From Halarcobacter sp. (lineage in GTDB: Bacteria > Campylobacterota > Campylobacteria > Campylobacterales > Arcobacteraceae): a stretch of 64,000 bases of DNA. Every line of letters begins with the position of its first letter. Position 1 is the first letter of the stretch. The position numbers are program-made. Location: NCBI GenBank assembly GCA_963676565.1, contig OY781089.1:736001-800000 (forward strand), written 5' to 3'. Below, piece after piece: positions 24,001 through 27,000 of the stretch.

Positions 24001-27000
24001 TTGCTGTTAGTGAAACTATTACTTTATGGTCGATTTTACTTAGTATTGGGGTTATGTTTTGGGTTGCTGGTTTTGATTTACTTTATTCTCTACAAGATAT
24101 TGAAGTGGACAAAGAGTTAGGACTTCACTCAATTCCAAGTAAATTTGGACCACAAAAAACAATGCTAATCTCTAAGGTGTTTCATTCCTTGACAGTATTA
24201 TTTTGGCTTTTATTTGCAATAACTTCAAATAGTGGAATATTTGCTTATATTGCTGTGATAATTAGTGCAGTGATGTTGACTTATGAACACTACTTAGTAA
24301 ATAAAGACTTCACAAAAATTGATAAAGCCTTTTTTACAGTAAATGGATACCTTGGTATTGTATTTTTCTTTTTAATATTAATTGACTCATTTTGAGACTA
24401 TTTTAATACCAGTATTAAATAATACTTAATTAAATATTTAGATAATTTCTAGTAAGATTTTTTTATATTGGGGTGGGGACTACATATGAGCGATAAATTA
24501 AAACGAGTCACATACATGACTGTAAAAAACTTAAAAAATGAAGACATAATTTTACCTGGGAAATACTCAAGCACTTTTGAAAGCTTTGCAAGAGGTCTTG
24601 AACTAGATGTTAAAGATGAAAATGTCGTATTAAAAGAATTAAATAATGATTCTAACTATGTAAATAATATCGTTAAGAAAACAAACAAAAATTTAGATAA
24701 TTTTTATAAATCGACAACTGATGCTCAAATTGCTATTAAAAATAATGATAAAGATTCATTAGAAAAAATCAATTCAGAAATAGCTCAAATGAGAAATGAG
24801 ATTAACTCTTTGCAAAAACAACTTTTTTCTGATCCATTAACAGGTGCATACAATAGAAAATGGTTTGCTGATGAATACTTAAATGATGATATTTTTAAAC
24901 ATGATGGTTTTATAGCATTTTTAGATTTGAATAAATTTAAGGCTATAAACGATACTTATGGACATATTGTAGGTGACCAAGTATTAAAGTATCTTGTTAG
25001 ATTTTTAAAAAAAGAGTTACAAAAACCAGGTGTTGATATCGTAAGATACGCAGGTGATGAGTTTATAGTTTTATTTAATAAAGAAAAAGCAACAGTTTTA
25101 AATGTAGATAGAACTATCTCTGAAACCCAAGAAAAGCTTTCAAGGCAAAAACTAAAATCTGCAAAAATAGATGAACTTCAGTTCTCTTTTTCTTTTGGGA
25201 TTAGCCCTTTTAGAAAAGGAGATTTTGTGGAAGATATTCTTAATACTGTAGATGAACTTATGTATAAAAATAAACAGAAAAGTAGACAAATCTAAAACTC
25301 TCTAAAGCCTACATGAGAGTGTTTTCAGAGATTTTTAAACAAAATAAATGTATTATTCGCTTCCAATCAGTGTGAAACTGATAAAAGCGCGTCTGTGGCT
25401 CAACTGGATAGAGCACTGGGTTTCGGCCCCGGCGGTTGTGAGTTCGAATCTTACCAGGCGTGCCATCTAGAAGCTCGATATAATGGACTCTATAGAGTTT
25501 TTATATCGGGCTTTTTTTATTTCCGAAAATATGAGTTCTCAATTATTCTTATATAATCTATTTAGTATTTTTATTTGTTACAGTGATTTTTTTAATTAGT
25601 GGAGATTCAACCTCTGGGGTGTAGGTTTGACAAATCAATAAAAGCAGGAGAAAATTGGTTTATATTTGTATTCTTAGGTTCAGGAAAAAACTTCCAAGAA
25701 ATTACAATTGAAAATGATATATACAAAAAAATTGAAACATCCTTTGATGAAAACAAAGAGATGATGCCAGAGTTCAAAGATTTTGTTAAAGACTGTAAGA
25801 AGTTATGTAAAGATATACCTTCTTCTGAACTACTTCAAAAATTATATGAAGAAGACAATAGAAATTCAGAGTATTTAGATTTAGAGACTTTTTTCAAAAA
25901 AGGTAGTGAATTAATTCAAAATATAGAAATGATTATTTTGCAGATAGTTTAATACAACAAGATATATTGAAAGAAAAAGAGAATATACTTTTATTTCAAT
26001 TGTTATCAATGTATTTAATTTCACTTTATAGAGTGTCAATTAAATAATTATTTAATAACTAAATAGATAAAATCATTATTTGTTAATAGTTTAAGGATAT
26101 ATATGAAATTTATCGAACCTTTACGTTTAATTAAGGCAAATGATTTACCTTTTAAATATTGGCTATTATTTACTATTCTTGCTGGACAATCAGGAATAAT
26201 ATTAAATATAATTATAGGTGTATATAGAGATAATGAAAGTATTTGGTGTATATTAGAAGATAGTTATTTGAATGGTGAGTTCTATACGTATTCAATTGCT
26301 TTACTTTCTTCAATGATTGGGTTAGTATTTCTTGATTTAATTTCTGCAGACAGTCAACATTTTAGACAAATTAAATTAAATACAATAATTATTGGCGCAC
26401 TATTGCTTGGATTTTCTGCTGTTACTTATCCATTTATGTCAAAGGGCGATTTGGAGTGGACACAATTAGTAATATATATACTTTCAATATCTTTAGCAAT
26501 ATATTTTTATGCACTTCTTAAATTAGAAGAAAATCATAAAAAGTTTGAACATTTGTATGATATTGATTATAGTAAAGCAGATGATGATACAGTTGATAAT
26601 ATTAAAAAAAGTGCGGAAACTACTAATACAGATAAAAAAGGAAATAAACTATGATTTTAGATTTTTTAGAAATTAATCAACCAATTGGAACATTTTATTT
26701 ATCTAAAATGTCTGCATCTAATATTAGTAAACTTACACAAGTAAATCAACGTTCAGATGAAAATGGTACAAGTGTCCAAAGAGAAGATTCTGAAAAGAGA
26801 ATAAAAGAAATATCAGCATATAGTAGTGATCCTGATGCTACATTCCCAACTCCAATTATTATTAGTATTTATGATAACTCAAATGTAGAAATAAAAGACG
26901 GTAAAATTGTTGTTCATAATGAAAATGAAAAAATTGGAGAAATTTTAGATGGACAACATAGAATTAGAGGATTAGAAAATTCATTATTTATAAGTGAGTT

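Follow-up and report, generated by a model that had tools for sequence, protein, structure and literature searches.

Our analysis indicates that the genome of Halarcobacter sp. carries a single tRNA for the CGN arginine box, tRNA-Arg(UCG), whose U34 very probably reads all four CGN codons by wobble, possibly as a cmo5U-type base, within a class that appears to lack TadA and tRNA-Arg(ACG) altogether and in a lineage that would have lost its G34-bearing arginine tRNA later on. The loss of TadA itself is real and well supported, and it has been known since 2018. What is added here to the printed record is modest, namely a check of 401 genomes, in which the TadA-like matches resemble guanine and cytosine deaminases, together with a family map of tRNA-Arg(GCG) or (CCG) against UCG alone, and the result that the rare CGN codons still stand for arginine.

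The tRNA-Arg(UCG) gene and the tRNA set

The genome consists of one contig of 3,340,668 bp with 28.4% GC, of which the window analysed here covers 64,000 nucleotides. ARAGORN finds a single tRNA in the window, tRNA-Arg(tcg) at 25389–25465 on the + strand, 77 nt long with its CCA encoded, and Infernal matches it to RF00005 with 56.3 bits (gathering score 29) in a full-length alignment (1–71); the gene is intact. Its anticodon loop reads U32-U33-U34-C35-G36-G37-C38. Identity elements for ArgRS are given as A20, C35, G36 or U36, and a discriminator A73 or G73 in the portion of PMC13433404 available to us, and all of them are present in the gene, with A20 in the D-loop (...TGGATA...), the anticodon TCG, and G73 preceding the CCA.

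Directly 3' of the gene, a hairpin followed by a T-run (25469–25518, + strand) is a likely intrinsic terminator, as predicted from RNA folding: the segment 25466–25530 folds with −23.1 kcal/mol (z = −5.7), and 0 of 200 shuffled sequences were as stable. Termination at this site would make tRNA-Arg(UCG) its own transcription unit. A simple consensus terminator scan listed nothing 3' of the gene because the loop and stem of this hairpin lie outside the rules of the scan. Upstream, ORF listing and translation place a 275-aa ORF (24468–25295, + strand) containing the motif RYAGDEF, which hints at a GGDEF-type diguanylate cyclase; this ORF is a neighbour only and stands outside the decoding trait.

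Across the whole genome, ARAGORN detects 49 tRNAs and a tmRNA, with tcg and tct as the only arginine anticodons. The Infernal set comprises the same 48 tRNAs plus one pseudo-tRNA of 24 bits, tRNA-SeC being called by ARAGORN alone. Both programs thus leave tRNA-Arg(UCG) as the sole NCG anticodon among the 49 tRNAs, with no tRNA-Arg(ACG), (GCG) or (CCG) in that set. Relaxed ARAGORN settings raised the number of candidates to 81, including additional 'Arg' calls with tct and cct, which we dropped because Infernal has no match at either place at E<=1. An earlier note on this DNA had described the same 49 tRNAs with arginine anticodons UCG and UCU and had named tRNA-Arg(UCG) as the only CGN decoder; both statements hold, and the agreement with Infernal speaks against its concern that aragorn might have overlooked a tRNA. 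Four further family boxes (Gly, Ala, Pro and Ser-UCN) are likewise served by one U34 tRNA each, so that five of the eight family boxes, Arg CGN included, are in this single-tRNA state.

Probable reading of CGN codons by U34

Codon use was counted in a crude set of 2954 ORFs of at least 100 aa, some of them spurious, including four inside rDNA. CGN codons account for 1871 of 29,134 arginine codons (6.4%), or about 1.8 per 1000 codons, the same order of magnitude as the 1232 of 23,640 counted previously. They are mostly CGU and CGA (CGU 840, CGA 847, CGG 111 and CGC 73 among ~1.02 million codons), at least one CGN codon occurs in 1174 of the 2954 ORFs, and the third-base choice resembles that of the other family boxes, where U and A dominate. 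To read their meaning, codons of Halarcobacter sp. were compared with residues of a relative (G275) in 472 orthologue-like pairs. CGU was aligned to arginine in 93 of 124 cases (75%), CGA in 96 of 135 (71%) and CGG in 18 of 25 (72%), compared with 2972 of 3966 (75%) for AGA; CGC, with 4 of 6 after removal of the four spurious rDNA ORFs, is too rare to be judged by itself. In these alignments CGU, CGA and CGG fall on conserved arginines at about the same rate as AGA, which argues that CGN is read as arginine.

Since tRNA-Arg(UCG) is the sole CGN decoder, its U34 must read all four codons, and four-way wobble on CGU, CGC, CGA and CGG would carry only a small load. In Salmonella and E. coli, cmo5U lets a single U34 tRNA read a family box. 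The Halarcobacter sp. genome encodes CmoA (TIGR00740, 252 bits; cut-off 193.3) and CmoB (TIGR00452, 336 bits; cut-off 275), and CmoB is found in 151/151 class genomes (E<=1e-40), with E. coli its only bearer among 14 controls. The presence of both enzymes, together with the single-U34 boxes for Gly, Ala, Pro and Ser-UCN, suggests that U34 probably carries a cmo5U-type modification that broadens its wobble. Such a base would be consistent with the expanded wobble described for Gram-negative family-box tRNAs with a cmo5U-type U34 (PMC6599085, abstract) and with the occurrence of CmoA and CmoB in gamma- and epsilon-proteobacteria (PMC6063277, likewise in part). Our literature search found no paper on U34 modification of tRNA-Arg(UCG) in Campylobacteria.

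It is conceivable, if somewhat doubtful, that U34 carries no modification and that superwobble alone covers the four codons; an unmodified U34 has been put forward for Mycoplasma haemofelis and its single tRNA-Arg(UCG) (PMC3711424, in the part available). The unusual U32/C38 loop of the tRNA in its own family could tune an unmodified anticodon. To our knowledge, the cmo5U tRNAs of E. coli include no Arg or Gly species, and we know of no tRNA-Arg(UCG) or tRNA-Gly(UCC) that is a cmo5U substrate, so that tRNA-Arg(UCG) may not be a substrate of CmoB. Against an unmodified base stand the occurrence of CmoA and CmoB here and of CmoB in every class genome sampled, as well as the near equality of CGU and CGA, in keeping with a base that forms good pairs with U, although neither point is decisive.

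A restricted reading, in which the tRNA is efficient on CGA and CGG only (for example with an xm5U-type U34) while CGU and CGC are poorly decoded and falling into disuse, is very unlikely. The strong avoidance of CGN and the low counts of CGC and CGG would agree with it, but CGU is as frequent as CGA and is found at conserved arginines with the same frequency as AGA, and the spread of CGN over more than a thousand ORFs, with a third-base pattern like that of other family boxes, also speaks against it. Four-way reading by U34, probably in cmo5U-type form, remains our preferred reading.

TadA and arginine tRNAs across Campylobacteria

TadA is absent from the Halarcobacter sp. genome as far as profile searches can tell. 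The NCBIfam model NF008113, with a curated cut-off of 150 bits, reaches at best 29.5 bits in it; the model is strict, as the earlier note had remarked, since it responds to 12 of 14 controls and only 6 of these exceed the cut-off (6 of 9 among controls responding at E<=1e-22). Profile searches with PF00383 and PF14437 recover only two CDA-fold ORFs, and an unfiltered HMM from 23 TadA-like relatives, run on all 12,546 stop-to-stop ORFs of at least 50 aa, recovers just the same two, which speaks against a divergent TadA, the caveat raised before. One, a protein of 147 aa, is dCMP-deaminase-like by its matches, with 5.6e-32 to the T4 dCMP deaminase and 2.2e-7 to TadA, values that reproduce those first reported; the other is RibD (228.7 bits on TIGR00326). 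The initial finding of two CDA-fold genes and no TadA is therefore borne out.

The same model, previously over its cut-off in 0 of 201 class genomes, is now over it in 0 of 401, the best match scoring 94.6 bits. Among 30 best-match loci that we checked, 23 are guanine-deaminase-like, with 136/131 bits to guanosine/guanine deaminases and 107 to TadA, and 7 are cytosine-deaminase-like, with 152 bits to the yeast-type cytosine deaminase and 76 bits on the TadA model. PDB sequence matches served as the classifier because NCBIfam does not cover guanine deaminases of the CDA fold; the top NCBIfam match of the guanine-deaminase-like proteins is the TadA model, below threshold, at 80–95 bits, a range in which some genuine control TadAs also score. 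We rejected these 23 proteins as TadA because guanine deaminases are their better matches in the PDB, because the substrate tRNA is missing and because of a C-terminal tyrosine, which we take to be typical of guanine deaminase.

Arginine anticodons were counted across the class with sequence patterns requiring a TGGA(N)A D-loop, U33, R37 and a GTTCRA T-loop. With A34, the scaffold yields one match in 401 genomes, which is not a tRNA, and its reversed-pattern control yields 8; with C, G or U at position 34 it recovers exactly the known tRNA-Arg genes in 5/5 genomes. A first strict scaffold (GGATAGAG...) proved insufficient, missing tRNA-Arg(UCG) in 8 of 9 genomes of one genus (g2); the missed genomes carry GGATAGAA, and a looser scaffold was used afterwards. 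The stricter scaffold places UCG in 377/401 genomes, with GCG and/or CCG beside it in 130/401, and no tRNA-Arg(ACG) was among the matches listed for the 401 genomes. Together, these searches found neither TadA nor tRNA-Arg(ACG) in the 401 sampled genomes of the class Campylobacteria (the former epsilon-proteobacteria). That an inosine system is present and was overlooked, whether because its TadA is highly divergent or because a tRNA-Arg(ACG) escaped detection, is barely credible: the strict model and the ability of odd tRNAs to elude pattern searches speak for it, but three profile searches yield just two CDA-fold ORFs in the Halarcobacter sp. genome, each attributed to another enzyme, the tRNA sets of ARAGORN and Infernal agree, and a generic search for U33-ACG-R37 with a T-loop in five complete relatives produced 40 matches, fewer than the 49 of its reversed control, with 0 tRNAs among the 30 checked.

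The distribution of the other arginine tRNAs qualifies the claim of a class-wide trait: the lack of TadA and ACG extends, by these searches, to all 401 genomes, but the lone UCG does not, because 130 of them have an additional GCG and/or CCG. Three other families carry the additional tRNA in 20/20, 7/7 and 26/34 genomes, and the single-tRNA state appears, on these gene patterns, typical of Arcobacteraceae and two further families rather than of the class.

This distribution across families, used in place of a rooted tree, suggests an order of events. In the class ancestor, the inosine system would have been replaced early by a G34 and U34 pair, tRNA-Arg(GCG) and tRNA-Arg(UCG), to which some members of the class also add CCG; in AT-rich lineages, including that of Halarcobacter sp., the GCG tRNA would have been lost later. 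A single relative within Arcobacteraceae (G177) retains what would be the older state, with tRNA-Arg(GCG), whereas core Arcobacteraceae have neither this tRNA nor tRNA-Gly(GCC), and the anticodon arm of their lone tRNA-Arg(UCG), with a G-C-rich stem, has U32/C38 in place of the C32/A38 of G177. The flanks of the G177 tRNA-Arg(GCG) gene map 1.3 Mb apart in the Halarcobacter sp. genome, where the syntenic place is rearranged. A phylum-level search for an outgroup that retains TadA reached just the same families (f1–f13, all labelled 'same order').

Relation to known decoding systems

Model bacteria cannot do without TadA, and outside Mollicutes the enzyme is generally regarded as universal. That an entire class, with Campylobacter, Helicobacter and Arcobacter among its members, lives without it bears on how CGN is read there and on codon choice for expression in or from these organisms, as well as on TadA as a broad drug target. 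The trait had been thought, in the earlier note, to be known from Mollicutes only; this is contradicted by Diwan and Agashe (2018, Mol Biol Evol, PMC6063277), who state in the passages available to us that inosine modification was lost 'in Spirochaetes and -proteobacteria', a letter having dropped out before the hyphen. We take the clade to be epsilon, from the parallel sentence of their preprint (10.1101/251322), which has '{epsilon}-proteobacteria' in the part available. Halarcobacter sp. belongs to Arcobacteraceae, hence to the epsilon-proteobacteria in the former naming, so the trait falls within their clade and was already known. The same passages infer that TadA is ancestral to bacteria and was lost in this clade, and they report that almost every species in three clades without TadA also lacks its target, tRNA-Arg(ACG). 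The clade-level trait is the same as ours, given there as a phrase and figure panels; the remaining CGN tRNAs, with their family split between UCG only and GCG plus UCG, are described here and do not appear in those passages. We did not find TadA loss in epsilon-proteobacteria stated outside Diwan and Agashe.

A close parallel is Mycoplasma haemofelis, which lacks tadA as well as ACG, GCG and CCG tRNAs and uses one tRNA-Arg(UCG) for CGN (Yokobori et al. 2013, PMC3711424, in part). Its end state, in which a single tRNA-Arg(UCG) serves four CGN codons without tadA, corresponds to step 5b of that scheme (no tadA, no ACG, GCG or CCG, one UCG, CGN used as arginine), and the same combination is found in Halarcobacter sp. 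The GCG plus UCG intermediate of step 5a, as far as the available passages describe it, also occurs in other families of Campylobacteria. The scaffold patterns turned up no surviving A34 intermediate in the 401 class genomes. In contrast to the reduced genomes of Mollicutes, the lone-UCG state occurs here in genomes of 1.3–3.3 Mb (3.34 Mb in Halarcobacter sp.), in a lineage with CmoA and CmoB. In these two enzymes, and in Ala, Pro and Ser boxes with a single U34 tRNA, the genome resembles the cmo5U systems of Gram-negatives.

There is also a likeness to organelles. In plastids and mitochondria, an unmodified U34 tRNA reads the four codons of each family box by superwobbling, and here too one U34 tRNA per family box would read four codons. 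Unlike organelles, with their very small tRNA sets (mitochondrial decoding is tabulated in PMC13433404, available in part), Halarcobacter sp. is a bacterium with an ordinary 3.34 Mb genome, and only five of its eight family boxes are involved. A bolder proposal, to which we give little credence, is that core Arcobacteraceae moved in one step to an organelle-like minimal set (28 distinct anticodons and five of eight boxes with a single U34 tRNA in genomes of 2–3 Mb), with the U32/C38 loop as an adaptation for four-way reading and with tRNA-Arg(UCG) and tRNA-Gly(UCC) as new cmo5U substrates.

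tRNA-Arg(UCG) is the only possible reader of CGN codons

The sole tRNA that ARAGORN finds in the window is a tRNA-Arg with anticodon tcg (window 25389–25465, + strand). Infernal aligns it over its full length to the tRNA model RF00005 at 56.3 bits (gathering score 29), and its sequence reads as a 7-bp acceptor stem, an encoded CCA, a discriminator G and a D-loop with A20. In the anticodon arm, the loop U32-U33-U34-C35-G36-G37-C38 is closed by a stem in which the three pairs nearest the loop are G-C. Excerpts of PMC13433404 include A20, C35, G36 and G73 among the ArgRS identity elements, and all four are present here. 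Immediately 3′ of the gene, a hairpin followed by a T-run folds at −23.1 kcal/mol (z = −5.7), as well as which none of 200 shuffles folds; it was not listed by a simple terminator scan. This strong hairpin and T-run make the gene look like its own transcription unit. About 1.2 kb downstream lies a 352-aa ORF (window 26651–27709, + strand) with a DGQHR motif, known from defence-island proteins of DndB-like or DGQHR-domain type.

Across the genome, a single contig of 3,340,668 bp with 28.4% GC, ARAGORN detects 49 tRNAs and a tmRNA, with 28 distinct anticodons, of which those for arginine are tcg (the window gene) and tct only. One U34 tRNA each serves the Gly, Ala, Pro, Ser-UCN and Arg-CGN boxes. 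A whole-genome Infernal search with RF00005 recovers the same 48 tRNAs above the gathering score, tRNA-SeC being seen by ARAGORN only, plus an extra match of 24.1 bits that copies part of tRNA-Leu(CAA). Additional ‘Arg’ calls (tct, cct) from relaxed ARAGORN were rejected, having no Infernal support at E ≤ 1. The two programs thus agree with the earlier note that tRNA-Arg(UCG) is the sole CGN decoder.

All four CGN codons are in use. Our crude set of 2954 ORFs of at least 100 aa (~1.02 million codons; some ORFs spurious, four inside rDNA) contains 24,351 AGA, 2,912 AGG, 840 CGU, 847 CGA, 111 CGG and 73 CGC codons, so that CGN makes up 1871 of 29,134 arginine codons and occurs in 1174 of the 2954 ORFs; an earlier count of 1232 of 23,640 rests on other gene calls. 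The third base of CGN (U 45%, A 45%, G 6%, C 4%) resembles that of other family boxes, as expected if one kind of reading applies throughout. Comparison with 800 kb of the same-family relative G275 yielded 472 orthologue-like pairs (minimum identity 50%, minimum ORF coverage 70%), in which arginine is aligned to CGU in 93/124 cases (75%), CGA in 96/135 (71%) and CGG in 18/25 (72%), alongside AGA in 2972/3966 (75%) and AGG in 338/461 (73%); for AAA the figure is 505/12,189 (4%). At least CGU, CGA and CGG therefore demonstrably mean arginine. CGC gives 4/10, with one spurious rDNA ORF, in four copies, accounting for four of the six misses, and the remaining 4/6 is too small a number to stand alone.

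Other features of the tRNA set lie outside the window. The 24-bit pseudo-tRNA (C1:2388230–2388306, on the genome's contig) duplicates ~30 nt from the 3′ terminus of tRNA-Leu(CAA) (2351461–2351547), and an integrated element of ~37 kb might be flanked by the two (C1:2351461–2388306). tRNA-Gly(GCC) is absent from the genome, whose only tRNA-Gly genes are four identical copies of tRNA-Gly(UCC) (C1:2884460, 2891806, 2891946 and 3301954), each with C32, despite GGU making up 47% of ~56,800 glycine codons. Gly(gcc) adjoins Leu(taa), Cys and Ser in the same-family genome G177 and in G021 of another family; in the studied genome the Gly gene is cleanly gone between tRNA-Leu(taa) and the conserved flank (C1:303743–304060), leaving a short remnant resembling a T-arm. 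The same-family genomes G009, G159 and G273 gave no Gly(GCC) match.

TadA in the genome and the class

TadA, the adenosine(34) deaminase that makes inosine on tRNA-Arg(ACG), was sought in the genome with the model NF008113, whose best match reaches 29.5 bits against a cut-off of 150; the same model gives a match in 12 of the 14 control genomes, six of them above the cut-off. PF00383 detects two genes of the deaminase (CDA) fold, and PF14437 rises above noise only on the same two. A custom profile built from 23 TadA-like proteins of relatives and run unfiltered over 12,546 stop-to-stop ORFs of at least 50 aa found no third CDA-fold ORF, the known two scoring 37.6 and 18.5 bits. One encodes a 147-aa protein that by sequence similarity is nearest to dCMP deaminases (5.6e-32 to PDB 1vq2 vs 2.2e-7 to the TadA 1wwr; on NCBIfam, ComEB 101 bits and TadA 38 bits), and the other, of 335 aa, is RibD (TIGR00326, 228.7 bits, cut-off 156). 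The figures behind the earlier claim that the genome lacks TadA were reproduced, and we regard the observation of a lone tRNA-Arg(UCG) without TadA as right and robust.

Among 401 class genomes from 14 families and 64 genera, each of 98% completeness or higher, none passed the TadA cut-off (top score 94.6 bits), with matches at E ≤ 1e-5 in 82 and at E ≤ 1e-10 in 44. ORFs taken from all 30 best-match loci fall into two groups. Proteins from 23 loci, of 144–169 aa, share the motifs GGPFGA, DPTAHAE, PCPMC and GFDD/GFRD and a C-terminal tyrosine, which we take to be a mark of guanine deaminase; the one example tested scored 136 bits to guanosine deaminase, 131.5 bits to guanine deaminase (full length) and 107 bits to Aquifex TadA. 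The other seven are yeast-type cytosine deaminases, of which the one tested reached 152 bits to PDB cytosine deaminases and 76 bits on the TadA model, so paralogues can attain such scores. Of nine controls ringing at E ≤ 1e-22, six passed the cut-off; some real TadAs therefore score below 150 bits, and TadA cannot be dismissed on its score alone. The substrate served as an independent test: in five complete genomes with a guanine-deaminase-like gene, a generic U33-ACG-R37 plus T-loop pattern gave 40 matches vs 49 in the reversed control, with no tRNA among the 30 checked (10 others unchecked).

The guanine-deaminase-like and yeast-type cytosine-deaminase-like genes (L004–L033) are patchy across the class and absent from the studied genome. 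A further deaminase-domain match (G303:C4:707673–707981, TadA model score 52 bits) falls within a 1306-aa open frame that may encode a large multidomain or polymorphic-toxin-like protein.

Arginine tRNAs and their anticodon arms across the class

A strict arginine scaffold (GGATAGAG, eight free bases, U33, V-C-G with non-U at 34, R37, then a T-loop) matched 130 of the 401 genomes, with none in the reversed control; the listed matches are GCG or, in 10 cases, CCG, and none is ACG. With U34, the scaffold matched 377/401, the misses falling mostly in the own-family genus g2 (8/9 genomes), where BLAST and ARAGORN found tRNA-Arg(tcg) with a variant D-arm in all five genomes checked. When the D-loop requirement was loosened to TGGA(N)A, A34 matched in one of 401 genomes, at a site that is not a tRNA (reversed control, 8), while C, G or U34 returned exactly the known genes in 5/5 genomes, with no control matches.

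By family, a GCG or CCG tRNA occurs in 1/23 genomes of f1 (the own family), 1/118 of f2, 47/158 of f3, 20/20 of f4, 7/7 of f5, 3/3 of f6, 26/34 of f7, 7/8 of f8, 1/2 of f9, 2/2 of f10, 9/19 of f11, 4/4 of f12, 1/1 of f13 and 1/1 of f14. This spread indicates, for the sampled genomes and by pattern searches, that the single-UCG state is a trait of some families only. The suggestion of a class-wide trait thus stands for the lack of TadA and ACG, found nowhere in the sample, and fails for the single-UCG state.

In the own family, the anticodon loop of the lone tRNA-Arg(UCG) reads U32-U33-UCG-R37-C38 and its stem is rich in G-C (window 25415–25431; listed matches), while C32 and A38 occur in all other families and in G177, the sole own-family member keeping tRNA-Arg(GCG). 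The change looks like one evolutionary event and so offers no independent replication. Used as an exact pattern on a collection of named species, the own-family arm has bacterial matches that include Arcobacter, Aliarcobacter, Halarcobacter, Malaciobacter halophilus, Arcobacteraceae, Campylobacterales and an Epsilonproteobacteria bacterium; the arm sequence GG-UUUCGR-CCC also occurs in tRNA-Arg-like loci of Pelagibacteraceae and of the unrelated Woesearchaeota, Pacearchaeota, Balneolaceae and candidate-phyla bacteria (L074–L153). The best alignments of the tRNA locus with 100-nt flanks, 88% over 146 nt and 81% over 198 nt, are to records titled as uncultured Campylobacterales and as Arcobacter. 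Together with the arm matches, they place the genome in Arcobacteraceae.

Earlier reports and the reading of four codons

The earlier note knew the trait from Mollicutes alone, and excerpts of Yokobori et al. 2013 (PMC3711424) describe TadA loss only there, the end state being M. haemofelis with its one tRNA-Arg(UCG). That restriction is contradicted by Diwan and Agashe 2018 (PMC6063277), a survey of 1093 bacteria whose consulted passages infer TadA to be ancestral and repeatedly lost, and term unexplained the losses of ‘I in Spirochaetes and -proteobacteria’, a Greek letter having dropped out. The preprint (10.1101/251322, in part) has ‘{epsilon}-proteobacteria’ in a cmo5U sentence where the journal text shows the same gap, and gamma and delta are printed in the journal text, so we take the clade to be the epsilon-proteobacteria. 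Arcobacteraceae belong to the class Campylobacteria, the former epsilon-proteobacteria. The trait is therefore already known, and some descriptive detail is new. Our literature searches returned no further statement of TadA loss in epsilon-proteobacteria and nothing on tRNA-Arg(UCG) modification in this class; the excerpts of the MMBR compendium PMC13602947 do not mention TadA loss in this class.

As to how one tRNA may read four codons, the genome encodes CmoA and CmoB, and CmoB is matched at E ≤ 1e-40 in 151/151 class genomes (144 above cut-off) and, among controls, in E. coli only. U34 of tRNA-Arg(UCG) would be hydroxylated and carboxymethylated to a cmo5U-type base, which, according to the abstract of PMC6599085, aids pairing with G and pyrimidines. 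Excerpts of PMC3711424 propose that U34 is unmodified in Mycoplasma haemofelis, and such a base is the less likely alternative here to a cmo5U-type one. G37 would also be methylated, as it is in other tRNAs that read CGN and CCN. In genus g25 of family f2, the CmoB match begins near model position 70, in open frames of ~262 aa, compared with ~300–325 aa elsewhere in the class.
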